Shown here piece after piece: positions 1 to 10,637 of a stretch of 10,637 bases of DNA. Origin of the DNA: a virus (taxonomy: Duplodnaviria; Heunggongvirae; Uroviricota; Caudoviricetes); the IMG/VR virus record IMGVR_UViG_2529292908_000010, positions 1 through 10,637 of that record; one strand, written 5' to 3'. How positions within the stretch are numbered: position 1 is the first letter of the stretch; every line of letters starts with the position of its first letter. The notes beneath the pieces were generated by a model. The model was not told the origin of the DNA and made no database searches. It saw only the letters and a program-made list of their open reading frames with translations. A program made the position numbers and the translations under genes.

Positions 1-1119
1 TCAAATAACCAACTTAACCCATTCCTGACCTCGAGTATCGTTATAGCGATCGGTGGTAGCCTGGACTTTATGTCCCAGTAATGTTTTTGTATCGACACCC
101 TGTGCGCGGTACAACCGTTCTGACAGGGAGCGTTGTTCATGAAATGTTGGCGGTGTTTTTCCTGCTGGTGGAATTATTCCAGCCAGATCTCGCGCTTTGG
201 CGAAGTAATCGCTCAGGTTGTCTTTACTCATCGGTTTTGGTTGTTTCTGGTGCCTACTATGGATTAGGTATGGACTCAACATTCTGTCCCTGCATCCATC
301 AATAACTTCTTTTAACGATACCCCAATTTCATCGCATCGTAGCCTAAGAGGTAAGGCCAGACGCATTCCGGTTTTTCCTTGGGTTATATGTAGATGTCCA
401 TTCCATACATCTGAAAAACGCATGTGGCAAATGTCATCACGGCGCTGACCAGTAACAATCGCAAGAAGCATTGCGTTACGGATAAAGTGTTTTTCTGGCG
501 TTGCATTATAAATTTTTTGCCAGTCTTCCAGGGTGAGTCTGGATCTGGTCACTTTAGGGATCGGTTTACGGGTAGCCTCCGGAGGATTCCATCCAGGAGG
601 AACTTCTCCCGCATGCTGTGCTTCTTTATAAATATCAACCCATAATCCGCGATTTACTCTTGCTGTGCTGACCATGTCTTTATCCATCCACTCGTCCAGT
701 ATTAATGCAAAGTCTCTTACCTCCAGTTCTTTCAATGGGTGGTTTCCCAGGCGGGAAACCAGGTATGCAGCCATTCGCACTTTTTCTTTGTGGGTTGTAG
801 CTGCAATGTCTCCATTTTTCAGTCGCGAATCCTGTATTTTCAGATATCGATCAACCCATGCCTTTAATCTGATACCCCGACGTTTTGTTGCTGATGGACT
901 TTCATCAATTTTGCGCATGAAATATTCTGCTTCTGCTGCAGCTATTCGCTGATTGGCTGTTGCAGCGATTTTTTCTGCCTTGACTTTGTCTGTCCCAAGT
1001 CCGTGAAATTTTCCAGTCACAGGATTTTTATACTGGTAGTAAACCTTGCCAGTTCTGCGATCAAATTTTTCGTAAAGAGCTGCTACGTCAGTACTGTTTT
1101 TTCGTGGCCTCGGTGACAT
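1..1119 (-). CDS. int: Tyrosine site-specific recombinase, lambda Int family (prophage integrase)
   Basis: Complete 372-aa ORF, ATG at 1119-1117 and TAA at 3-1. Collinear with lambda Int from memory, including the HxxR box (TFHEQRSLSERLY) and C-terminal catalytic Tyr region (ATTDRYNDTRGQEW). First gene at the window edge, as at a prophage left end. Confidence 0.93.
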   Translation of the reverse strand: MSPRPRKNSTDVAALYEKFDRRTGKVYYQYKNPVTGKFHGLGTDKVKAEKIAATANQRIAAAEAEYFMRKIDESPSATKRRGIRLKAWVDRYLKIQDSRLKNGDIAATTHKEKVRMAAYLVSRLGNHPLKELEVRDFALILDEWMDKDMVSTARVNRGLWVDIYKEAQHAGEVPPGWNPPEATRKPIPKVTRSRLTLEDWQKIYNATPEKHFIRNAMLLAIVTGQRRDDICHMRFSDVWNGHLHITQGKTGMRLALPLRLRCDEIGVSLKEVIDGCRDRMLSPYLIHSRHQKQPKPMSKDNLSDYFAKARDLAGIIPPAGKTPPTFHEQRSLSERLYRAQGVDTKTLLGHKVQATTDRYNDTRGQEWVKLVI

Positions 1120-1357
1120 GGGTTAAAATCTCCTTCAGTGCGTCATCATCGCCAGTATGAATTTCCGGCGCAATTCCAGCTTCACCCGGTCCAACAAAGA
1201 CTGCGCGGCGATCTATTAGCCAGCGACCACGAATTTTTTGTGGTCTTGGTACGATGTATCCAAGTTTTCCGTATTTCACCAGGGTAGTGTTTGTTATTGG
1301 GAGACTGAACCGCTTAGGTTTCCACTCGTCGAGCGTAATCAGGTACTGTTCGCTCAT
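1088..1357 (-). CDS. xis: Excisionase (Xis-like)
   Basis: Small ORF directly upstream of int, overlapping its start by 32 nt as in lambda xis-int. N-terminus MSEQYLITLDEW resembles lambda Xis (MYLTLQEW...). ATG at 1357 has GGAG 8 nt upstream; the ORF track starts at an in-frame GTG at 1366, so the start is uncertain. Confidence 0.75.
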   Translation of the reverse strand: MSEQYLITLDEWKPKRFSLPITNTTLVKYGKLGYIVPRPQKIRGRWLIDRRAVFVGPGEAGIAPEIHTGDDDALKEILTHVTEATKKQY

Positions 1358-1418
1358 GACCATCACTCCGGAACGCGCCAGTTGCAGAATACCAACTACA
1401 ACCGGCGACGGTTGAACA

Positions 1419-3890
1419 TTAAAAATCAGCCTGACTCGGGATCAGTTTTTGCCAGATAACTGAAACGTATTTTGCCTGGTAACGGGCGTCATCAAGTGCA
1501 TTATGGCGCTCACCTTCGAATGGAATAGCCGTTCTGGCATCGAAGTCTATGGCTTTCCCCAGCTCAACGATTGTGCGTACATCGCGATCGTTGTAGTAAC
1601 GCCACGGGCAGGGGATCCCCTGCCGTTCGTATGAACGGCGCAAAATCGTGTTTTCGAAGTTGGCTCCATTTCCCCAGACCTGAACAAAAAATTCACCGGA
1701 GTTTTCGTCGATAAATTCCCGCAATTGTAACAGTGCATCATCTAACGGGATTTCATCGGTCATAATGGCAGACTGCGCTTCACGTGATTGCTTCAGCCAC
1801 CTTTTAATGACGTCACGATCAATGACTCCGCCAGCAGTTTCCAGATCGATAGTCTTACTAAATTCCGGTCCCATATCTCCGGTTTGCGGATCGAAAAATA
1901 TTGCATCTATTGAGATAATCGGGGCATCAGGATTTTTGCCCATTGTTTCAAGGTCAATCATCAGATGGTGCCACAACCTGCTGGTGGATGTGCTTTTACG
2001 ATGACCGTTCACCTTAATTAAGGGATTTGCTGTCTCGCCTATTTCATTATTGTCATTGGCATGTTGATCGCCTTCGGTGCACTCCTTGTTCGGGAGTCCG
2101 GCACTTTCTATTTCCTCTGGATCTTTTTCCCGGGCTTCATCCTGGCTTTCTTCGTTGAATGTCTCCTGGTAGGTTGCGTCACCCATCACTGCGCCACAAT
2201 CAGGGCAGTTACCACCACCAGTCTGATTGCATGCGGTACAAACTTTTTCCTCTTCCTGTTGCACGACTGGTTCAGGTTGTTTCGTTTCTGGCTCGTTTTG
2301 TAACGCATTTTGGCTGTTTTGTTCCGCTTTTTGGTCGTACTGTTCCGTTTCTGACTGGTTCTGGTGCACAGAATCGCGGGTTTCAATCCCCTTCACCCAT
2401 TTCGGATCATTCGGGTCGCTAATCCCTTCAACAAATTCACCACGTGATGCAGCGAGCAACTTATTAGCGTCAGGCTGGCTGATACTGGCTGCCTGCATAA
2501 TTTTGTTTACTTCGTCAGCGGTAACTTTTACCAGGTCTGGTTGTGCGGTCGTGTCAGATGCATCAGTATTTTGTTGTGAACCTGTGTATGTGCCGTTTTT
2601 GCGGGCAAAATATTCTTCTTTCGTGATTTCAGTTGCCCCGGCAGCCAGCGCCTTATCCAGACCAGAAAGTTTGTTTGCGCGACCGTATTTTTCGCCATCC
2701 TTGTCGGTGAAGAGGAAGTAGAACGGCCCCTCACGCTCTACAGATGGTTCGACTTCCACTTTGCATTCGGTTTTTTCGTTGTCCGGCATTGCCGTTTCCA
2801 CTGCATCAGCTTCTGGTACTGGCGACGGGAGAGTATTAGTTGTGCTCTGATTTGTTCCTTCATCTTCAAACACGCCCTTTGTAGTCAGGTATTCAGTGAT
2901 GTATTTGTTCAGCGCCACGGGATCTTTGTGAATGTCGATCGGACGTTCACGGACAAGGCCAAAAATAGTCTGACGGTCATAGCCAAGTGCTTCAGGCTGT
3001 TTGCGCATTGATGCCGAGATACGCTTCCAGTCTTCGCGGTCGTTGTCGATAACTTCATTTTTTGCCCAGCGATGGATGCTGCCGTCAATGTTTCCGGCAT
3101 CCACATCACCAGGCCAGAGAGCGTAGGCCAGTTCGTCATCCAGTGTTTTCCATGTCTGCTTGTATTCGCGATGAATGGCAGCAATGACCGGGCTGATTTT
3201 TCCTGTTGAATTTTCAGTGTGCTGTTGATTGGTTCTGGCGCGGGCGAGATCAACAACAGACGTGTATTTTCCTGTTTCCTTGCGTTCACCTTCGCGACGT
3301 TTTTTCCAGATGCGCATCTCTGCCTGAATTTCGGGCCATTTGGCACTAGGCTTACATTTATGCTTAACCCACCCGATGGCATGCAGCTTAAGCTCCGGAT
3401 ACATGGCGTTAACTTCTGGCATTTTCATCAACGCTTCAACGATATGTCCGTCGAATGTTGCCATGTCTTCCTGCAACAATTCCTGTGCGCTAATAACCAT
3501 ATCAACGGTGATGTTTTCACATGTGTCGAACTTAACCATGACAGCGTTCTGTACTTCAGGGGCCAGCTTGTCAAAAGTGACGTTCATCGGATCGGATTCA
3601 GTCTCAACCGGGACAAAGGAAGCAGACTCCTCATCCCAGCGGTTTTCCTGCATATATTCAGCATCCCATGAATCGAGGGCAGGGCGGGGTATGCCAGGTT
3701 TATCCTCGCAGACAATAAATTTATAAGCGCAGTCCTGAGCAGCCGGATAATGTTCCAGGAATTGCCAGTGAAATTTTGCTCGAGCACGGCGTTCGTCGCC
3801 AGCTTCAATGGCTGTGGCTACAGCCACAGCGCCTTCTTCCCTTGTTGCCAGTTCGTCAGGAATAGCGGCGCAAATAAAGACTTTACTCAT
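1419..3890 (-). CDS. Large early-left exonuclease (exodeoxyribonuclease VIII-like) with C-terminal DEDDh/DnaQ-like 3'-5' exonuclease domain and internal Cys4 zinc ribbon
   Basis: 823-aa ORF, ATG at 3890-3888, TAA at 1421-1419. C-terminal motifs MIDLETMG (Exo I), VWGNGANFEN (Exo II-like) and ERHNALDDARYQ (Exo III, H-x4-D). Central C-x2-C-x7-C-x2-C (CTACNQTGGGNCPDC) inside an acidic Q/E/N-rich stretch. Occupies the recE position upstream of xis-int. Family call is from motifs and memory, not a search. Confidence 0.85.
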   Translation of the reverse strand: MSKVFICAAIPDELATREEGAVAVATAIEAGDERRARAKFHWQFLEHYPAAQDCAYKFIVCEDKPGIPRPALDSWDAEYMQENRWDEESASFVPVETESDPMNVTFDKLAPEVQNAVMVKFDTCENITVDMVISAQELLQEDMATFDGHIVEALMKMPEVNAMYPELKLHAIGWVKHKCKPSAKWPEIQAEMRIWKKRREGERKETGKYTSVVDLARARTNQQHTENSTGKISPVIAAIHREYKQTWKTLDDELAYALWPGDVDAGNIDGSIHRWAKNEVIDNDREDWKRISASMRKQPEALGYDRQTIFGLVRERPIDIHKDPVALNKYITEYLTTKGVFEDEGTNQSTTNTLPSPVPEADAVETAMPDNEKTECKVEVEPSVEREGPFYFLFTDKDGEKYGRANKLSGLDKALAAGATEITKEEYFARKNGTYTGSQQNTDASDTTAQPDLVKVTADEVNKIMQAASISQPDANKLLAASRGEFVEGISDPNDPKWVKGIETRDSVHQNQSETEQYDQKAEQNSQNALQNEPETKQPEPVVQQEEEKVCTACNQTGGGNCPDCGAVMGDATYQETFNEESQDEAREKDPEEIESAGLPNKECTEGDQHANDNNEIGETANPLIKVNGHRKSTSTSRLWHHLMIDLETMGKNPDAPIISIDAIFFDPQTGDMGPEFSKTIDLETAGGVIDRDVIKRWLKQSREAQSAIMTDEIPLDDALLQLREFIDENSGEFFVQVWGNGANFENTILRRSYERQGIPCPWRYYNDRDVRTIVELGKAIDFDARTAIPFEGERHNALDDARYQAKYVSVIWQKLIPSQADF

Positions 3891-3985
3891 TTTGTTTTAA
3901 CCTCATTACAGATTTCAGGGTGAACGAATCCCTGCCATTGCTGGCATTTTTAATCCGTTGGTATGGCGTTAATATGGCTGGCGGG

Positions 3986-4174
3986 TTATCCAGCCGGTAT
4001 TGCGTTATTCAGGTTCAGCGATACTTTTTTTAACGGGAGGCATTCACCGGGGATTTTTTGTTCGTCCCTTACCTGAATGCAGGATGACTTACTGTCATAA
4101 ATTCCGGTAATCACATTTTGTGGCTCACCCGTTATAAGAAAAACGGTCATCACCAGTGCAAATGCTGAAGTCAC
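3986..4174 (-). CDS. Hypothetical small protein (62 aa), hydrophobic N-terminus
   Basis: ORF with GTG start at 4174-4172 overlapping the upstream stop (GTGA), GGAG 7 nt upstream. N-terminus MTSAFALVMTVFLITG is hydrophobic. No recognisable family; AT-rich context. Confidence 0.4.
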   Translation of the reverse strand: MTSAFALVMTVFLITGEPQNVITGIYDSKSSCIQVRDEQKIPGECLPLKKVSLNLNNAIPAG

Positions 4175-4359
4175 TGCTGTTCTCCGATAATACCAAGTTC
4201 AAGAAGGGCAATTCTGGAAAGTATGGAATTATCATTGAGAAGATAAGGTTCATATTTTCTCATCTTAATGGCATCTTCCGTAAACTCCCGGTTACTGAGC
4301 AGAACACCAATATCAAAACAACCTTCAGACGTATTAACGTTTGGTAATAACGTTTCCAT
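4171..4359 (-). CDS. Hypothetical small protein (62 aa)
   Basis: ATG at 4359-4357 with GAGGA 7 nt upstream; stop overlaps the start of the next ORF. No recognisable family. Confidence 0.45.
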   Translation of the reverse strand: METLLPNVNTSEGCFDIGVLLSNREFTEDAIKMRKYEPYLLNDNSILSRIALLELGIIGEQQ

Positions 4360-4376
4360 TATCGCGTCCTCAACAA

Positions 4377-4537
4377 TGAATTTTGTGATGCGGTGCCTGG
4401 TGCCTCCAGGTGACGTTAACCAGTTAACAATTAACGCCGGAATACAGAAGGATGCCCGTTACGCCCCGTAAAAGACCACTTTACGGTTTTAACTGTTCCG
4501 CGTGCGCATAGCCGCATTCACCGCATCACAAAATTCA
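4377..4537. repeat. Perfect 19-bp inverted repeat pair flanking a 123-bp palindrome-rich segment
   Basis: TGAATTTTGTGATGCGGTG at 4377-4395 and its exact reverse complement CACCGCATCACAAAATTCA at 4519-4537. Interior holds further palindromes (CCTGG-tgcct-CCAGG at 4396-4410; GTTAAC-cag-TTAAC at 4415-4428). Confidence 0.7.
4466..4490 (+). terminator. Terminator-like hairpin followed by TTTT (plus strand)
   Basis: CCGTAAA (4466-4472) pairs with TTTACGG (4480-4486), 7-nt loop, then TTTT at 4487-4490. Stem is AU-rich and no confident plus-strand gene lies upstream. Confidence 0.25.
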
Positions 4538-4835
4538 CTTTAAAAAGGGTGGCAGAGCAGTCACGGAGTAGAACTGATGCCACCAAATACTACACATGGG
4601 TATTGTGGCGGGGCTGTCACTTAAGCGTATGGTCAACCTGACGACCCGGTGCATTTTCTGGAGCAATGGAGGAAGCCCCAGCCATACTTACCGCCGCGCC
4701 ATTTCGCGGACTGCCACAACCGGAAGTGCACGGTCGAAGAAATTTAACGACAAGCCTTATATGCAAAGGAATCTCGCCGTGCGCTTTCGTGTTGTGTGCC
4801 TGCTTTTAACCACGTCAGGCGAGGTGGTTTCCGTC

Positions 4836-4864
4836 ATTCCCCAATAACAGGAAATCTGTATAAT
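4836..4864 (+). promoter_or_regulatory. Putative sigma70 promoter for the rightward membrane-protein gene
   Basis: Perfect -10 TATAAT at 4859-4864 preceded directly by TG; -35 is poor (ATTCCC/TTCCCC). Lies 35 bp upstream of the SD-ATG at 4898. Confidence 0.3.
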
Positions 4865-4897
4865 CTGGATATCCCCAACAACAGGAAGGTGTTTTAT

Positions 4898-5056
4898 ATG
4901 GTGGTTCAAAAGAATTGTTCAGGTACTGGTAAGCCTGCGGACAGGGCGGACATTCCGAATACCAGGAAACATATACCTGAGAAAAACATTCGACCAAAAC
5001 CATCTCCAGCTCCTTCAGAGGAGAGGGGGAACAGCAACAATCAAACAAGCAGGTGA
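4898..5056 (+). CDS. Hypothetical small hydrophilic protein (52 aa)
   Basis: ATG at 4898 with AGGAAGG 8 nt upstream; stop 7 nt before the next ATG. Pro-rich, low-complexity product and not in the track under this start, so it may instead be a leader region. Confidence 0.3.
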   Translation: MVVQKNCSGTGKPADRADIPNTRKHIPEKNIRPKPSPAPSEERGNSNNQTSR

Positions 5057-5062
5057 TGATAT

Positions 5063-5509
5063 ATGGACCGGGATGATATTCTTGACAGGGTTTTATATGG
5101 TTATTTTCTTGAACAACTATTCTCTGTAGCGACTGGTCGTCTCGATAAACTTTTCTCAGTGGTGAGTATTATCCTCGGTTCATCTGTCATTGGTGGATTT
5201 ATTCCTGAAGTTTCTGGAGTTCTCATCGTTGTGATAGCAACCGTTCAAACGATTTACGGATTCGGACAAAAGTCAGGTAACGCAATGAGAAAATCCGCAG
5301 AATATCTGCAGCTTTATGATGATGCAGAAAAATATTCCGATTCGGAATTGAAAATGCAGTTAAAGCTCCTGGAAAAAACAGATGATAATATTTGGTCGTC
5401 GCTTAAAGATATCGCAATCTTAAAAACCCAGATCAAAATAGGAATCTCCGTAGAACAACAAGAGAAACTGTCTGCAAAATCCAAATTGATGCGATTCCTT
5501 TGTGGTTAG
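5063..5509 (+). CDS. Small membrane protein, putative superinfection-exclusion / abortive-infection protein (SieB-like by architecture and position)
   Basis: 148-aa ORF, ATG at 5063 with AGGTGA 6 nt upstream. Two predicted TM helices (LFSVVSIILGSSVIGGFI; VLIVVIATVQTIYGF) then a charged helical tail. Rightward gene set among leftward early genes, as sieB is in lambda/Rac. Confidence 0.7.
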   Translation: MDRDDILDRVLYGYFLEQLFSVATGRLDKLFSVVSIILGSSVIGGFIPEVSGVLIVVIATVQTIYGFGQKSGNAMRKSAEYLQLYDDAEKYSDSELKMQLKLLEKTDDNIWSSLKDIAILKTQIKIGISVEQQEKLSAKSKLMRFLCG

Positions 5510-5607
5510 GAATACCCAGATTGTTAAAGAGCATGCCGAATGCTTACCCGTGTCCGGCGAACGTATTCCACTTCGCCTGTGGAGAACTCTTTAATTACTA
5601 ACCTTCA

Positions 5608-5760
5608 TCAGTCAGAGTTTCTTGCTAACCAGCGATGCGCGCCAGCTTCAGTTTTAAACGTTTTGCTTCTGGTATACGTCATCGCGGTAAACGTGCCGTC
5701 CTGGTTAGGGAACACACCACATACCAGAGATTCGTTGTTGCCAAGATTGAGCATATCCAT
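5608..5760 (-). CDS. Small hypothetical prophage protein (50 aa), YdaF/YdfA-like by size and position
   Basis: ATG at 5760-5758 with GAGG 5 nt upstream, TGA at 5610-5608. Product MDMLNLGNNESLVCGVFPNQDGTFTAMTYTRSKTFKTEAGAHRWLARNSD is not compositionally biased. Below the 60-aa track cutoff; translated by hand. Confidence 0.45.
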   Translation of the reverse strand: MDMLNLGNNESLVCGVFPNQDGTFTAMTYTRSKTFKTEAGAHRWLARNSD

Positions 5761-5933
5761 GTTGACCTCATTTCCCCTTAACGCCGGGTCGCGGAACTAA
5801 AAACCTGCTGCGCTGTTATACAAAGTGTTCCCGCCGTCATGTTCATACGCCTCGGGCTGGCTACTTAACCCCTGACCACTGCCGGGTAACTCTAGGTATT
5901 GCCTGGCGTTCTGTGGGACGGGGTGGTGAAGTT

Positions 5934-5963
5934 AGTTTATACAAAAATAAACTAAACAGCCAA
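5934..5963 (-). promoter_or_regulatory. Putative leftward early promoter (pL-like) with overlapping 20-bp operator-like palindrome
   Basis: Minus strand: -35 TTGGCT (5963-5958), 16-nt spacer, -10 TATAAA (5941-5936). Palindrome AGTTTA-N8-TAAACT at 5953-5934 overlaps the -10. Lies just downstream of the parE terminator. Confidence 0.4.
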
Positions 5964-5984
5964 TATGTAACTTAACGCTTTGGC

Positions 5985-6010
5985 GTAAATAACCCCCTTT
6001 TGAGAGGGGG
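5985..6010 (-). terminator. Rho-independent terminator of the repressor/toxin-antitoxin operon
   Basis: Minus strand: GC-rich stem CCCCCT/AGGGGG (6010-5993) followed by UUAUUUA (5992-5986), 16 nt after the parE stop. Confidence 0.55.
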
Positions 6011-6025
6011 CTTTGCTTCGGGGGA

Positions 6026-6313
6026 TTAAGGTGTTACAGGGAACTGTCGGCGGGCGTGAACTACGTTAACAATTTCAATGCCTGAAATTGTCACGCGGTA
6101 CAGTATTATGTAATTGGGGTGGGCTACAATTTCACGTAAACCGGGTACTCTGTCGCTTGGCGGGTATAAATACGGATGCTCAGATAATGGCAGAACGCAA
6201 GTCCTTAAGCGTTTCCACAAACGTTCTGCCGCATCTATGTCAAAACGTGCAATATAGCTGGTTATCTCATCTAGGTCGGTATCTGCGCTTTCAAGCCATA
6301 ACACGGGTAACAT
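6026..6313 (-). CDS. parE: ParE/RelE-superfamily toxin (ParE2-like)
   Basis: 95-aa ORF with RelE/ParE hallmarks (REIVAHPNYIILYRV...IEIVNVVHARR). ATG at 6313-6311 abuts the stop of the upstream antitoxin gene (TAA-ATG). Confidence 0.9.
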   Translation of the reverse strand: MLPVLWLESADTDLDEITSYIARFDIDAAERLWKRLRTCVLPLSEHPYLYPPSDRVPGLREIVAHPNYIILYRVTISGIEIVNVVHARRQFPVTP

Positions 6314-6505
6314 TTACTGTTTGCTCCGTTCCTTGCGCATTTTTGCAAAGCGTTCTGCCATTCTGCGTTCAACTTCGTCATGAGGAATAGCTGGACGTGG
6401 ATCAGCTAGGCTCGCGGCCACTTTTGCACGCAACCATTGGTTATAACTATTTTCTTGCTCGACGGTTTCAAATTCAGAAACCATTGGTGAAAGGGCTGTG
6501 TTCAT
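6314..6505 (-). CDS. paaA2: PaaA2-like antitoxin
   Basis: 63-aa ORF directly upstream of and coupled to parE, GAGG 6 nt before the ATG. Sequence (MNTALSPMVSEFETVEQENSYNQWLRAKVAASLADPRPAIPHDEVERRMAERFAKMRKERSKQ) matches my recollection of E. coli O157 PaaA2; recollection unverified. Confidence 0.8.
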   Translation of the reverse strand: MNTALSPMVSEFETVEQENSYNQWLRAKVAASLADPRPAIPHDEVERRMAERFAKMRKERSKQ

Positions 6506-6542
6506 ATGGTGAACCTCATCTTGTAAGTGCTGGTAAATCGGC

Positions 6543-6716
6543 CTAGGTAACTTTCTGTTGTGCTTCTAGCCACCTTGCAACTATACGATCCATTGCCTCT
6601 TTTTTCTCCTTCATATCTTTTAGCATTTGCTGTTGATCTTCCTCTGGAAATGCGTCAAATGTTTGAAGTAGTTCTTTTTGCCTAGGGGTTATTTTTAATA
6701 TACCCTGTGCCCTGTC
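6543..6716 (-). other. -1-frame continuation encoding the C-terminal domain of the PaaR2-like regulator
   Basis: From the slippery site the -1 frame reads DRAQGILKITPRQKELLQTFDAFPEEDQQQMLKDMKEKKEAMDRIVARWLEAQQKVT*, homologous to the C-terminal domain of the 6925..7338 gene. This frame opens only 4 codons before the slip site and has no usable start. Confidence 0.5.
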
Positions 6717-6937
6717 TTTTTTTCTTCATTTAATGGTAAGAAAAACCAATACTGAGGAAATCCCGTTACTTCAGATAGTTTATCTAGATTAGCTGCTGTA
6801 GGGCTTGAGATACCACAAACCCACCTTTGGACGGATTGTTGAGCAATACCAATTCTGCGCGCAAGTTCTGCTTGACTCCAGCCTTTTGTCAATAGAAGCA
6901 TCTTAATTCTAAGAGCACTAATTTCTAGTACGCCCAT
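6695..6937 (-). CDS. XRE-family HTH regulator, N-terminal part of a PaaR2-like regulator
   Basis: 80-aa ORF with classic XRE motif (LTKGWSQAELARRIGIAQQSVQRWVCG), first gene upstream of the antitoxin. Ends 5 codons after an A_AAA_AAG heptamer, beyond which the conserved C-terminal domain continues in the -1 frame. Confidence 0.75.
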   Translation of the reverse strand: MGVLEISALRIKMLLLTKGWSQAELARRIGIAQQSVQRWVCGISSPTAANLDKLSEVTGFPQYWFFLPLNEEKKTGHRVY

Positions 6938-7338
6938 TTGATATCTCTTGTTTTAGTATGTCTCTCGTCAGGCTCGGCGACCTTGCTGCGCCAACCAACG
7001 TGCAACAAGATCTTCCATTGCCTCTTTTTGTTTCTTAGTTCTTTTATGATCTCCTGCTGCTCATTATCAGGAAATGCACTAAATATTTGTAGCAATTCCA
7101 ATTGGTTAGGGGTTAATGCTATAGGTCTTGATGGCGGAGCTCCTGTTATGTCTTCTGGCTCAATATCAAGATAACCCCCTGGCATCCCATATGTTTGTTC
7201 AATACGTCTAGCCGCCTTTTCGCCAAACGTAGCTTTACCGCTCATTAATTGAGATAAGTAACTTTTCTCTTTAGGTGGCAAAGTCCTGTCTTTGAACCAC
7301 TCTTTGAGGCGTAAACGCCGAATCTCTTTTGTTTCCAT
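6925..7338 (-). CDS. Repressor-position HTH regulator (cI/RacR positional analogue), paralogous to the PaaR2-like regulator
   Basis: 137-aa ORF from ATG 7338 (track starts at GTG 7344), divergent from the Cro-like gene. N-terminal phage-repressor-like HTH (SYLSQLMSGKATFGEKAARRIEQTYGMPGGYLD); C-terminal domain (TPNQLELLQIFSAFPDNEQQEIIKELRNKK) homologous to the 6543..6716 segment. No SD, consistent with leaderless translation. Confidence 0.8.
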   Translation of the reverse strand: METKEIRRLRLKEWFKDRTLPPKEKSYLSQLMSGKATFGEKAARRIEQTYGMPGGYLDIEPEDITGAPPSRPIALTPNQLELLQIFSAFPDNEQQEIIKELRNKKRQWKILLHVGWRSKVAEPDERHTKTRDIKWAY

Positions 7339-7344
7339 ATACAC

Positions 7345-7373
7345 ATTATCTTTAGTAATTGCAAAATAAGCAA
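7345..7373 (-). promoter_or_regulatory. Putative pRM-like promoter giving a leaderless repressor mRNA
   Basis: Minus strand: -35 TTGCTT (7373-7368), 17-nt spacer, -10 GATAAT (7350-7345), placing the start site at or next to the A of the ATG at 7338. Motif-based only. Confidence 0.35.
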
Positions 7374-7377
7374 ATGC

Positions 7378-7407
7378 TTGACTAGTTTGTTTAGTTGTGT
7401 ATAAACT
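7378..7407 (+). promoter_or_regulatory. Putative pR-like promoter with overlapping 20-bp operator-like palindrome
   Basis: -35 TTGACT (7378-7383), 16-nt spacer, -10 TATAAA (7400-7405). Palindrome TGTTTA-N8-TAAACT at 7388-7407 overlaps the -10, 16/20 identical to the one at 5934-5953. Confidence 0.5.
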
Positions 7408-7439
7408 TTATGTGTTCTAAATGTGCAGAGATAAAAGTT

Positions 7440-7721
7440 ATGACGTTAAAGGAATTCATCAAATCATTAAAAACTGGAGAAGCCAAAAAATTTGCGGCCA
7501 ACCTTGGTGTGTCTCCGTCCTTCTTATCCCAAATGGCATCTGGAAATTCACCTGTGTCTCCTGTTCGTGCGTTGATGATAGAAGCTGAAACAGGAGGACA
7601 TGTTACAAGACGAGAGTTGAGGCCTAATGACTGGGAGCTTATATGGCCTGAATACACTGGAAGCACGCCTCCTTCACGTCACAAATATGAACTTAACTCC
7701 AAAAAGCTGATGGGGGGGTGA
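7440..7721 (+). CDS. Cro-like HTH protein (YdaS-type)
   Basis: 93 aa from ATG 7440 (upstream in-frame ATGs fall inside the promoter). Cro/YdaS-like motif KKFAANLGVSPSFLSQMASGNSPVSPVRALMIEAETGGHVTRRELRPNDWELIWPEY. Divergent from the repressor gene. Confidence 0.8.
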   Translation: MTLKEFIKSLKTGEAKKFAANLGVSPSFLSQMASGNSPVSPVRALMIEAETGGHVTRRELRPNDWELIWPEYTGSTPPSRHKYELNSKKLMGG

Positions 7722-7724
7722 TTC

Positions 7725-8162
7725 ATGAAAATCAAGCATGAGCACATCCGTATGGCGATGAATGCGTGGCTGCTTTATCCGAGAGTGGGGCGCAAAAAAA
7801 TCGCTGATGATATAGCAACAGCATATTTTGAGCTTGAAATGACTTATCCACCAATGCATGACACCTCTACGACAGAGGGTATTGGATTGAACATACAAAA
7901 TATTTTTCGCTGGCTTGAAAAGGATACGCCTGATGCTGTTGAAAAAATTCAGGCACTAATTCCGGCGATCCTGACTGTTCTTCCGCGTGAACTGCGTTAT
8001 CACCTCAGTATTTTTGACACTGTTGAGCGCCGTGCATTACTGGCGGCGCAGGAAGCGTTGAGCACGGCAATTGATGCACATGATGATGCAGTCCAGGCCG
8101 TTTACCGGAAAGCGTATTTCAGCGACGGCGGGTCATCCGGCGAGTCTGTTGTGGTGCATTGA
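7725..8162 (+). CDS. YdaT-family protein (CII-position regulator)
   Basis: 145-aa ORF starting 3 nt after the Cro-like stop, G-rich SD upstream. Size, sequence character and position match Rac YdaT-type proteins. Confidence 0.85.
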   Translation: MKIKHEHIRMAMNAWLLYPRVGRKKIADDIATAYFELEMTYPPMHDTSTTEGIGLNIQNIFRWLEKDTPDAVEKIQALIPAILTVLPRELRYHLSIFDTVERRALLAAQEALSTAIDAHDDAVQAVYRKAYFSDGGSSGESVVVH

Positions 8163-8248
8163 TATTTATGCCAGACCCCTGCTGATTCTGTTGATTGGGG
8201 AATCACAGAATATCACCAGAGGATGGTTCGTCACAAGATGAGGCAATT

Positions 8249-9262
8249 ATGGCCGCATTACCATACATGCAACTGTACATAGCTGATTACCTGGCTGACA
8301 CCATGCATTTGTCTGCAGAGGAGCACGGCGCGTATTTGTTGCTGATGTTTAATTACTGGCAAACAGGGAAACCAATACCTAAAAACAGGCTGGCAAAAAT
8401 TGCCCGTCTGACTAACGAGCGATGGGCTGATGTTGAACCATCCTTGCGGGAGTTTTTTTGCGATAACGGCGATGAATGGGTGCATCTTCGGATTGAGGAA
8501 GATCTGGCATCAGTCAGGGAAAAATTAACCAAAAAATCAGCCGCCGGAAAAGCATCTGTTCAGGCCAGAAGAAGCAGAAAGGAAGCATATGTTCAAACAA
8601 AACAAGAGAGAGATTTAACAGGTGTTCAAACAAATGTTGGTGTTGTGTTTGAACATGACGCAAACACAAAAGCAACTAATAAAGATACAGATCTAAAAGA
8701 ATTAAACCCCACACATAACGTGCGTGAGCGCGAGAGTATTCCGACCAGTGAGTTGCATGGTGCGCCGTTGCAGACAGCCGAACCTGAATACCTGGACGGC
8801 CTGAGCGAACCGATCGGGAAATTTTCGATGACCACTGTCTGGCAGCCGTCGCCGGATTTTCGACAACGGGCAGCAGTGTGGGGTATGGCTCTGCCTGAGC
8901 CGGAATTTACACCTGCTGAACTTGCCGCCTTCAGGGACTACTGGGCAGCTGAGGGGAAAGTTTTTACGCAGGTTCAGTGGGAGCAGAAATTCGCCCGTCA
9001 CGTAAATCACGTCAGGGCGCAGGTTAAACCAGTCAGCAAGGGGGTGCGTCATGCAGCAGCACCAGGTGGCACCGCATCACGGGCAGTTCGGGAAATTCGG
9101 GCAGCACGTGAGCAGTGGGAACGTGAAAACGGATTTGTCAGCGACGGAAACGGCGTGGAAGCTGTGGGAGCTCATGGGGGAGGTTTATTCAAACCGCTGG
9201 ACTCAGAAGAACGGGGCCGCACCTTCGAAGCTCTGGATTGCCCAGATTGGCGCGATGACTGA
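8249..9262 (+). CDS. Replication initiation protein (lambda O positional analogue; YdaU/DUF1376-like N-terminal domain)
   Basis: ATG at 8249 with GAGG 5 nt upstream (track starts at TTG 8195). N-terminal domain YMQLYIADYLADTMHLSAEEHGAYLLLMFNYWQTG is YdaU/DUF1376-like. Iteron-like repeats sit in the interdomain linker. The last ~70 codons overlap the P-like ORF and are low-complexity, so the true 3' end is uncertain. Confidence 0.8.
   Translation: MAALPYMQLYIADYLADTMHLSAEEHGAYLLLMFNYWQTGKPIPKNRLAKIARLTNERWADVEPSLREFFCDNGDEWVHLRIEEDLASVREKLTKKSAAGKASVQARRSRKEAYVQTKQERDLTGVQTNVGVVFEHDANTKATNKDTDLKELNPTHNVRERESIPTSELHGAPLQTAEPEYLDGLSEPIGKFSMTTVWQPSPDFRQRAAVWGMALPEPEFTPAELAAFRDYWAAEGKVFTQVQWEQKFARHVNHVRAQVKPVSKGVRHAAAPGGTASRAVREIRAAREQWERENGFVSDGNGVEAVGAHGGGLFKPLDSEERGRTFEALDCPDWRDD
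8590..8655. repeat. Iteron-like repeats (candidate replication origin) inside the O-like gene
   Basis: TGTTCAAACAAA at 8590-8601 and 8623-8634 (direct), TGTTTGAACA at 8646-8655 (inverted copy of the 10-mer core), followed by an A-rich stretch at 8661-8700. Confidence 0.4.
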
Positions 9263-9716
9263 ACAGCAAATCAGGCTGGTCTGCCGTCAGTGCATGGACC
9301 GCTGCCGGGCGGGTGAAACGTGGCCCCCGGACCTGGCTGAGTTTGTTGCGCTGATTTCGGAGAGTGGGGCAAATCCATTTGGTCTTACGGTGGATGCCGT
9401 GATGGAAGAGTACCGGCGCTGGCGCAATGAATCCTGGCGGTACGACGGGAGTGATAAATACCCGTGGCCACAGCCTGTGCTGTACCACATTTGCCTCGAG
9501 ATGCGCACCAGAGGGATTGAACGTCAGATGACTGAAAGTGAGCTGAAACGACTTGCAGAACGACTGTTGACCAAATGGGCAAAGAATGTTGGTAACGGCA
9601 TGAGTGTTCCGCCAGTGCGACGACAACTGGAAGGGCCAAAACACCCGCCAGGGCCAACGCCAATTGAGTTACTGAAACAGGAATATGAGCGCCGGAAAGC
9701 GGCTGGTTTTGTCTGA
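9051..9716 (+). CDS. Lambda P-like replication protein (helicase loader)
   Basis: 221-aa ORF, ATG at 9051 with AGGGGG SD. Collinear with lambda P from memory (WPPDLAEFVAL vs PSPGQFVAWC; YPWPQPVLYH...ELKRLAERLL vs YPWKSNAHYW...ELRRKAADEL). Start uncertain; internal ATG at 9174 is possible. Confidence 0.8.
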   Translation: MQQHQVAPHHGQFGKFGQHVSSGNVKTDLSATETAWKLWELMGEVYSNRWTQKNGAAPSKLWIAQIGAMTEQQIRLVCRQCMDRCRAGETWPPDLAEFVALISESGANPFGLTVDAVMEEYRRWRNESWRYDGSDKYPWPQPVLYHICLEMRTRGIERQMTESELKRLAERLLTKWAKNVGNGMSVPPVRRQLEGPKHPPGPTPIELLKQEYERRKAAGFV

Positions 9717-9749
9717 ATTTGAGAAATGATTTTGTCGGAGGAAATTTTA

Positions 9750-10463
9750 ATGGAAACCGTTTTTGACGCACTGAAAGCACTGAAAAGAGCCTCTTCACAG
9801 GAGGTGTCGGCCCGCCTTGGAATCAGCCGCGAAGATGCTGTCAACGAGCTGTGGAAGCTGAAACGCCGTGGTGAAGCAGATAACAAGGGGTCGATGTGGT
9901 GGCTGACGATTGAGGCAACTGAAATGGTCACAAAAACCACTGCGGAGATGCTGATTAACTCAATTGAACAGCATGGTCCTCAGTCGGCTGACGAACTGGC
10001 GTTAATGTTCGGGATTACCTCCCGCCGGGCGAATTCAACGCTGGCAATGGCAATAAGCAAAGGTCGTCTGATTCGAGTAAATCAGAACGGTAAATTTCGT
10101 TACTGCCTGTCGGGCGATAATTTACCAGCAGAGCCGAAAGCTGCATCGGTAACGGAAACTGCTGGTAAAGCCTTTCCTCAGACAGCAGGTGTTGCGTTAC
10201 CAGTCCGGGAAGCGGAAACACAGGAAGAAATTAAAACTGAAAGTGTGGCGGTCACAGTGCAGTCACAGCCGTCGTTCACCAGAAAGCATCCGGATAGTCT
10301 GATTTTACCATCGCTGCATGTGGCTAACCGCGAACTGCGCCGGGCAAAAGGTCAGGTTCAGAAGTGGGAGCGAGTCTGTGCTGCGCTGCGTGAGCTGAAC
10401 AAGCACCAGGATATTGTTCGACAGATTGTCGATTCCTCCAGTCGTATTGTGTCGGAAAAGTGA
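9750..10463 (+). CDS. Hypothetical protein with two winged-helix-like segments
   Basis: 237 aa from ATG 9750 with GGAGG 8 nt upstream (track start 9726 has no SD). Two HTH-like segments ([28 protein letters not shown]; [32 protein letters not shown]). Sits directly after the P-like gene. Confidence 0.75.
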
Positions 10464-10478
10464 TTGCCGGAGGTACTT

Positions 10479-10637
10479 ATGGCAAGAGTATTTACACAGG
10501 AAGAGCGGGAAGAAGTGAAGGCGCGCATTGTGGAATTCGTGCGCCTGAGCGGACGAGAAACTTTTCGACAACTGGCAGATAAAACGGGTGTCAGTAAGAC
10601 CGCTATTCGTCGTTTACCCAATCAAAAGCAGGGGTGA
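10479..10637 (+). CDS. Small hypothetical protein (52 aa) with HTH-like segment
   Basis: ATG at 10479 with GGAGG 7 nt upstream; TGA at 10635-10637 is the last codon of the window. Product MARVFTQEEREEVKARIVEFVRLSGRETFRQLADKTGVSKTAIRRLPNQKQG. Below the track cutoff; translated by hand. Confidence 0.5.
   Translation: MARVFTQEEREEVKARIVEFVRLSGRETFRQLADKTGVSKTAIRRLPNQKQG

Follow-up and report, generated by a model that had tools for sequence, protein, structure and literature searches.

What does a perfect inverted repeat do in a short region free of protein genes, just in front of two small leftward genes of a tailed phage? We have addressed this question in a window of 10,637 nucleotides, i.e., positions 1 to 10,637 of the IMG/VR virus record IMGVR_UViG_2529292908_000010 (Caudoviricetes), and all coordinates below without a locus number refer to this whole stretch. 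A first-pass annotation made from the letters alone had offered three candidate explanations, namely paired operator or looping sites, a miniature inverted-repeat element, and a structured or antisense RNA locus. The structured RNA locus is the part that has survived our analyses, because pairing of the arms in the minus-strand RNA is supported by strong covariation and by an excess of G·U pairs on that strand only, while the operator or looping sites, the mobile element and the antisense RNA have been given up for the reasons set out below.

Place of the inverted repeat in the operon

In a repeat search, the arms at 4377-4395 and 4519-4537 are 19 nt long and 100% complementary, with 123 nt between them; the left arm reads TGAATTTTGTGATGCGGTG, and the right arm is its complement. 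The earlier reading had held that such a repeat is beyond chance and had proposed to search for the 19-mer elsewhere. Within the window, the search finds the 19-mer at these two places only, even when 3 mismatches are allowed, and the first point is borne out, since 0.01 matches would be expected by chance and two were not reached in any of 200 shuffles. The end of the left arm is 17 nt upstream of the start codon of dicB (4359), which confirms that this arm sits just upstream of a leftward gene pair. The surrounding ~540 bp had been described as a non-coding region; the inverted-repeat unit does lie there, but the region is not featureless, as it also contains the gene of the DicF sRNA.

Region 4300-4950 (651 bp) shows 100% identity to E. 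coli G1/2. Of 5426 complete E. coli genomes, 4728 have a match to it, in almost all cases located under or next to dicB. As judged from the sequence, the layout of the window is that of the Qin/Rac-type 'dicBF' operon of K-12, with the following features in minus-strand order.

6695-6937, minus strand: HTH repressor gene, with the YdaS and YdaT genes on its other side
6026-6505, minus strand: ParE toxin/PaaA2 antitoxin pair, an insertion in the immunity region that separates the ydfA-like gene from the HTH repressor gene
5608-5760, minus strand: ydfA-like gene (DUF1391)
4713-4799, minus strand: second long imperfect hairpin, ~29 bp, upstream of DicF
4547-4598, minus strand: DicF sRNA (Rfam RF00039, 62 bits, cut-off 48, E = 5.6e-12)
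4542-4546, minus strand: U-tract of the DicF intrinsic terminator, directly upstream of helix P1 (see below) in the same transcript
4377-4537, minus strand: inverted-repeat unit
4367-4371, minus strand: Shine-Dalgarno sequence GAGGA of dicB, 3 nt downstream of the P1 3' strand
4171-4359, minus strand: dicB CDS (Pfam DicB PF05358, 129.5 bits)
beyond dicB, minus strand: DUF1482 gene, then genes of an 823-aa exonuclease, an excisionase and an integrase

The inverted-repeat unit is the dicF-dicB spacer of a single leftward polycistronic transcript. It has a mid-operon position, the ydfA-like gene being over 1 kb away, and in K-12 the operon promoter dicBp is located at the 5' end of the counterpart of that gene (literature including PMC10448788). 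When Rfam is searched at its gathering thresholds, DicF is the sole match. We have also observed that the 5' 'seed' part of the window DicF, CAUGUGUAGUAU..., differs from that of K-12 DicF, UUUCUGGUGACG....

An RNA helix and the domain that it encloses

We have gathered relatives of the unit from phage records, viral contigs and one genome per species, and have aligned 24 diverse elements with MAFFT, i.e., in an alignment that was not fitted to the structure. These elements come from Escherichia, Shigella, Citrobacter, Klebsiella, Raoultella, Enterobacter and Pseudescherichia.

Read as minus-strand RNA, the arms form a helix, P1, of 21 bp without mismatch, in which the 19 Watson-Crick pairs are extended by a G·U and an A-U pair. 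Folding of the minus-strand RNA gives the full P1 enclosing P4 and P5 in both the MFE and the centroid structure. The parts of the domain are listed here from 5' to 3' in the RNA.

4519-4539, minus strand: P1 5' strand with the right arm (4519-4537), beginning 3 nt past the U-tract of the DicF terminator
4499-4516, minus strand: P2 hairpin, stem UGCG/CGCG, loop GCUAUGCGCA
4489-4495, minus strand: J2/3 segment CAGUUAA, 5' strand of a pseudoknot with the P4 loop, in invariant alignment columns
4439-4488, minus strand: variable insert P3, with a window hairpin at 4466-4486 that is terminator-like on the plus strand
4412-4438, minus strand: P4 hairpin of 10 bp, a GTTAAC-rich palindrome
4421-4427, minus strand: UUAACUG (P4 loop and the adjacent stem G), 3' strand of the pseudoknot
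4396-4410, minus strand: P5 hairpin CCUGG-AGGCA-CCAGG (CCTGGAGGCACCAGG), stacked directly on the P1 3' strand
4375-4395, minus strand: P1 3' strand, which holds the left arm (4377-4395)

That is, P1 closes a domain of ~120 nt that contains P2, the pseudoknot between J2/3 and the P4 loop, the variable P3, P4 and P5. The two extra palindromes and the terminator-like hairpin that had been noticed inside the repeat do exist, and they are P4, P5 and the P3 insert, respectively.

In the 24-element alignment, 93.6% of the cells pair in the structure made of P1, P2, P4 and P5, compared with 36-46% when the partners are slid. Double (compensatory) changes are found at 12 of the 21 pairs of P1, at 5 of the 10 of P4 and at 2 of the 5 of P5, i.e., 19 in total, and none of 500 shuffles reaches the observed values of pairing and covariation. 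In P5, a U-A to G-C double change occurs in 7 of the 24 sequences. P2 is 100% paired, but its stem is nearly invariant in this alignment. When the alignment is read on the dicF/dicB sense strand, it holds 131 G·U pairs against 22 A·C mismatches, and because of this excess the structure belongs to the dicF/dicB sense RNA and not to DNA. In other words, the inverted repeat is an RNA helix, not a DNA site. In Escherichia and C. braakii, this helix begins 3 nt past the U-tract of a DicF-type terminator. P1 itself failed the test for an intrinsic terminator, UUGUUGAGGA being what follows it, and the only match to the terminator consensus inside the unit is on the plus strand in the variable P3.

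The pseudoknot, which joins the 16 nt after P2 to the P4 loop, is family-wide, and elsewhere in the family the paired segments are CUGGUGU/ACACCGG, AAUGACUG/UGGUCAUU and CCAGUC/GACUGG. The summed complementarity is 218 with the own loop versus 160 ± 6.6 with permuted loops, and 0 of 5000 permutations reach 218.

The family in question is STnc100. Its Rfam model (RF02076) aligns end to end at 4327-4549 (-) with 36.8 bits, short of the gathering cut-off, which is 47 (the E value is 2.7e-6 when 801 nt are searched and 3.5e-5 for the whole window), and the copies in K-12, Klebsiella, P7 and Citrobacter reach about 34-45 bits on the same model. At E-value thresholds, no Rfam family other than STnc100 matches the element, and no second STnc100-like copy was found upstream of DicF or elsewhere in the window. 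When viral contigs were scanned for the P5 signature CACCNGGAGGCACCNGGCACC, at least 120 loci were obtained. Many of these score 76-132 bits and are bona fide STnc100, and in some cases four copies lie in tandem next to tRNA genes. All follow a common plan: P1 ending in GGUG/CACC, then AAU, P2 with the loop motif CUNWGCG that is common to STnc100, a variable P3, P4, and then P5 as CCNGG-AGGCA-CCNGG, the STnc100 family signature. The helices, these signature motifs and the pseudoknot were looked for in the window element and are present there, and both it and its relatives are phage-borne. On the other hand, it differs from STnc100 in the sequence of the P2 stem, in a P1 of 21 bp rather than ~8 bp, and in being embedded between an sRNA and a CDS instead of standing alone; it is without the own intrinsic terminator of a stand-alone sRNA, the Shine-Dalgarno sequence and AUG of dicB coming directly after P1. 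By sequence comparison, then, the element is related to the prophage RNAs of the STnc100/PasD class, although divergent and scoring below the threshold, and it falls in a 'GCGG-P2' subfamily that is missed by the Rfam threshold. Both STnc100 and PasD are expressed, and PasD is Hfq-dependent.

The length of P1 varies within this family. A typical STnc100 has a P1 of ~8 bp and its own terminator, whereas the copies in early-left operons of lambdoid prophages have a P1 of 17-21 bp and no terminator. Behind such long-P1 copies, an ORF starts 15-65 nt downstream and encodes DicB, KilR, a LuxR-like protein or unknown proteins. In the P1-like phages P7 and D6, helix P1 has only ~9 bp, and TerB is found behind the short-P1 copies in P7 and Escherichia sp. 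MOD1-EC7003. We have considered a specific link between the long P1 and cell-division inhibitors, i.e., cell-division control, and have rejected it because the downstream genes vary in this way.

Some further arrangements of these elements were seen among the relatives (L numbers denote loci of our collection). Tandem arrays of STnc100 comprise four copies in L016 at 2265-3380 (-), adjoining tRNA genes, and two in L101 at 7149-7610 (-). In P7 (L127), a short-P1 copy at 2501-2616 (+) has tRNA-Thr on one side and terB on the other within the ban operon. Such arrangements suggest co-processing of STnc100-type copies with tRNAs, and a general RNA module of phages is conceivable, because the fold recurs in tRNA-side tandem arrays and in this operon of P7. 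In addition, in L131 at 1376-1598 (-), and also in the types of L006, L157 and L158, a short-P1 GCGG-P2 element is followed by the tail UGUGUAGUCUUGGCGGUACCAG..., a hairpin and a U-run. The L131-type tail weakly resembles DicF (19.8 bits, E = 0.052), so that in these loci the core and a DicF-like module would again be neighbours, in the opposite order.

Probable RNase III processing of the dicF-dicB transcript

Overall, we consider it quite probable that the inverted repeat is an RNase III processing stalk in the DicF-dicB transcript, which closes a pseudoknotted domain of the STnc100/PasD type. Most likely, the stalk separates DicF, a structured core of ~143 nt, and the dicB mRNA. P1 has the following properties of an RNase III stem: it is a near-continuous double-stranded RNA of about two helical turns (~20 bp), it is formed on the transcribed strand, and it has been kept by selection.

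The stalks of rRNA operons, the intercistronic sites of the T7 early mRNA and the N-leader site of lambda are all RNase III sites. The window stalk is similar to them as a long helix that flanks a functional RNA or lies between cistrons and would be cut to separate the products. In contrast to these sites, it encloses a small pseudoknotted ncRNA domain, and it stands directly after an intrinsic terminator and would therefore be present only in read-through transcripts.

The closest known case is the K-12 Qin prophage, where the site is in the orthologous position with ~86% identity and with the same order of DicF terminator, P1, core and dicB. Three differences are seen: the window has a perfect 19-nt inverted repeat whereas the K-12 arms differ at two positions, its P3 insert is different, and the 5' region of its DicF has diverged. 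According to the passages on DicF in two reviews, PMC5069750 and PMC9438474, which cite Faubladier 1990, K-12 DicF has two 3' ends, a 53-nt form arising by Rho-independent termination and a 72-nt form that arises when RNase III processes full-length dicBF RNA. Counted from the 5' end of K-12 DicF, nt 72 falls on base 10 of the 19-nt arm (...AAAGUGAAUUUUGU^GAUGUGGUG). The reported 3' end of the 72-nt form thus maps to the centre of the 5' arm of P1, with ~10 bp on either side, as expected for RNase III.

By analogy with these passages on K-12, the cut in the window would fall between 4528 and 4527, with an uncertainty of a few nt because it is derived from reported RNA lengths. Assuming the 2-nt 3' overhang rule of RNase III (PMC6212723), the staggered partner cut would be between 4385 and 4384. 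An in vivo rule (PMC6212723) asks that the two positions lying between the staggered cuts be paired, at least one of them as G-C; at the inferred cut site in the window, these two pairs are G-C and U-A. In the main texts of PMC6212723 and PMC5371410, DicF is mentioned only as a citation.

A further RNase III cut is known upstream in K-12, where it gives rise to a 190-nt DicF precursor (PMC10448788). The homologous position in the window, ~4727|4726 when homology is judged by eye, lies in the 3' arm of the hairpin at 4713-4799. Because the upstream cut maps into this hairpin, DicF would be bracketed by two RNase III stems.

The mechanism that we propose is as follows. When the polymerase reads through the DicF terminator, the 21-bp P1 would form in the minus-strand polycistronic transcript. 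In this subfamily, P1 would have been lengthened to two full helical turns, which would make it a substrate of RNase III. Cleavage in the middle of P1 would trim the read-through DicF to its 72-nt form and would release the ~143-nt core with a P1 stub of 9 bp, about the P1 length of a stand-alone STnc100. The 5' end of the dicB-DUF1482 mRNA would also be set by this cleavage, ~25 nt ahead of the AUG, on a leader that carries GAGGA. Here, the dependence on RNase III and the position of the cut are taken from the above literature passages on the K-12 orthologue and would apply to the window by analogy. The cleavage of both strands, the release and accumulation of the core, and any effect on dicB expression, in whichever direction, are what we would expect to follow.

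Cleavage by RNase III is not family-wide, since the relatives in P7 and D6 have a P1 of only ~9 bp, and because such short-P1 relatives exist the core must have some other role. The released core may act in trans, Hfq-bound like PasD, or in cis by setting the expression of dicB or kilR. We regard it as a tentative and rather doubtful idea that dicBF-type prophage operons encode a third RNA in this way, i.e., a ~143-nt core of the STnc100/PasD class that acts in trans bound to Hfq or senses a factor in cis. If the core is functional, the toxic dicBF module would yield a third product besides the two, and it would provide a genetically tractable member of STnc100 for finding the function of the family.

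RNase III processing at this place in K-12 has been known since 1990, going by the same literature passages, and STnc100 is a curated family. What appears to be new is that the dicF-dicB spacer (and the spacer upstream of kilR) is recognised as a divergent STnc100-type domain, that the P1 of such a domain is extended into an RNase III stalk, and that the STnc100 family has a covarying pseudoknot. That is, the cut is largely known biology, and the link to STnc100 and the pseudoknot are modestly new. The link connects two literatures, one on the RNase III maturation of DicF and the other on the STnc100/PasD prophage sRNAs. It predicts that a processed core of ~143 nt exists and that the dicB mRNA has a defined 5' end. 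In addition, a conspicuous palindrome of most E. coli genomes would thereby be explained.

Alternative readings of the inverted repeat

The domain could also be regulatory in cis, i.e., a ligand- or protein-sensing switch or a self-processing RNA that would control the translation or stability of the gene starting 15-65 nt downstream, with P1 as a switching helix and RNase III only secondary. Actually, all 17 of the long-P1 and short-P1 'GCGG-type' copies examined sit just 5' of an ORF start, and the fold is elaborate for an sRNA, with four or five helices, a pseudoknot and invariant junction nucleotides. An alternative pairing is also possible, as GGUGA at the start of the core could, judging from the sequence, pair with UCACC before P5. 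However, most family members stand alone, are followed by intrinsic terminators and form tandem arrays beside tRNA genes instead of preceding ORFs, the PasD relatives behave as Hfq-dependent sRNAs, and the Shine-Dalgarno sequence of dicB lies outside P1. We therefore hold a cis-acting domain of this kind to be improbable and keep to the RNase III stalk.

The readings at the DNA level fare much worse. Paired operator or looping sites for a prophage repressor, controlling the leftward small-gene pair, would fit a perfect palindrome pair 17 nt upstream of dicB with further palindromes inside. A repressor operator would be expected to have a conserved half-site, symmetric on both strands, and this was not found: the distal arm half has an entirely different sequence in Citrobacter, Klebsiella, Raoultella and Enterobacter while 17-21 bp still form, so that complementarity is conserved between genera while arm sequence is not. 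The two changes in the K-12 arms break the symmetry of the DNA palindrome twice, yet both give G·U pairs in the minus-strand RNA, in line with the general excess of G·U over A·C cells. Moreover, the unit is internal to the operon, over 1 kb away from the ydfA-like gene at which dicBp is located in K-12, with no promoter-like site nearby. Such an operator is hardly credible.

It is equally hard to believe that the 161-bp unit is a miniature inverted-repeat transposable element (MITE) inserted between dicF and dicB. Terminal inverted repeats are present, and relatives of the unit are known from different phage settings (dicB, kilR, the P7 ban operon and Klebsiella prophages). On inspection of the sequence, however, the ends of the unit show no target-site duplication (flanks CAACAA and CTTTAA), and what would be its terminal repeats are not conserved but co-vary. 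The unit keeps a constant distance to the DicF terminator and to the start codon that follows, at syntenic sites of phage operons 5' of a gene, and inside it lies an RNA fold that is conserved and has its wobble pairs on one strand. In the complete E. coli genomes, near-identical dispersed copies outside prophage operons were not seen.

An independent or antisense sRNA gene on the plus strand, with the 4466-4486 hairpin and its T-run as terminator, is very unlikely: this terminator-like site does exist on that strand, but it lies in P3, which varies in length and sequence among relatives (the K-12 counterpart, 13 nt shorter, and the likewise shorter Rac counterpart both lacking a matching hairpin), the wobble pattern favours the minus strand, and the idea was dropped because a promoter scan of 4100-5600 found none on either strand.

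Other classes of structured RNA, i.e., retron msr/msd, Y-RNA, tRNA-like RNA, riboswitches and ribozymes, have been set aside, as no reverse transcriptase or other partner gene is adjacent and no Rfam family but STnc100 matches.

Several minor observations were made around the unit. In K-12 Qin (L002), nt 6-14 of DicF, GGUGACGUU, are perfectly complementary to AACGUCACC in the downstream element (P4 3' strand and J4-5); this complementarity may be coincidental, since the window DicF is without this segment. A direct repeat, GTATTAACGTTT / GTAATAACGTTT, at 4331-4355 (+) corresponds to the minus-strand RNA just past the dicB AUG. A 7-bp hairpin over the dicB start codon (GAUAAUG...CGUUAUU) is present in the MFE and the centroid fold, and this predicted hairpin may limit the translation of dicB.

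On the upstream side, an ORF of 148 aa at 5063-5509 (+) runs counter to the leftward operon, in the position that sieB takes in Rac-type prophages (L003). It has no Pfam match and matches phrog_6315 (unknown function) with E = 6e-24, and leftward transcription would pass antisense through it. Upstream of this ORF, the 16-nt motif TCCCCAAYAACAGGAA is found in three direct copies at 4838-4853, 4872-4887 and 4953-4968 (+), with 81-100% identity and spacings of 34 and 81 nt.
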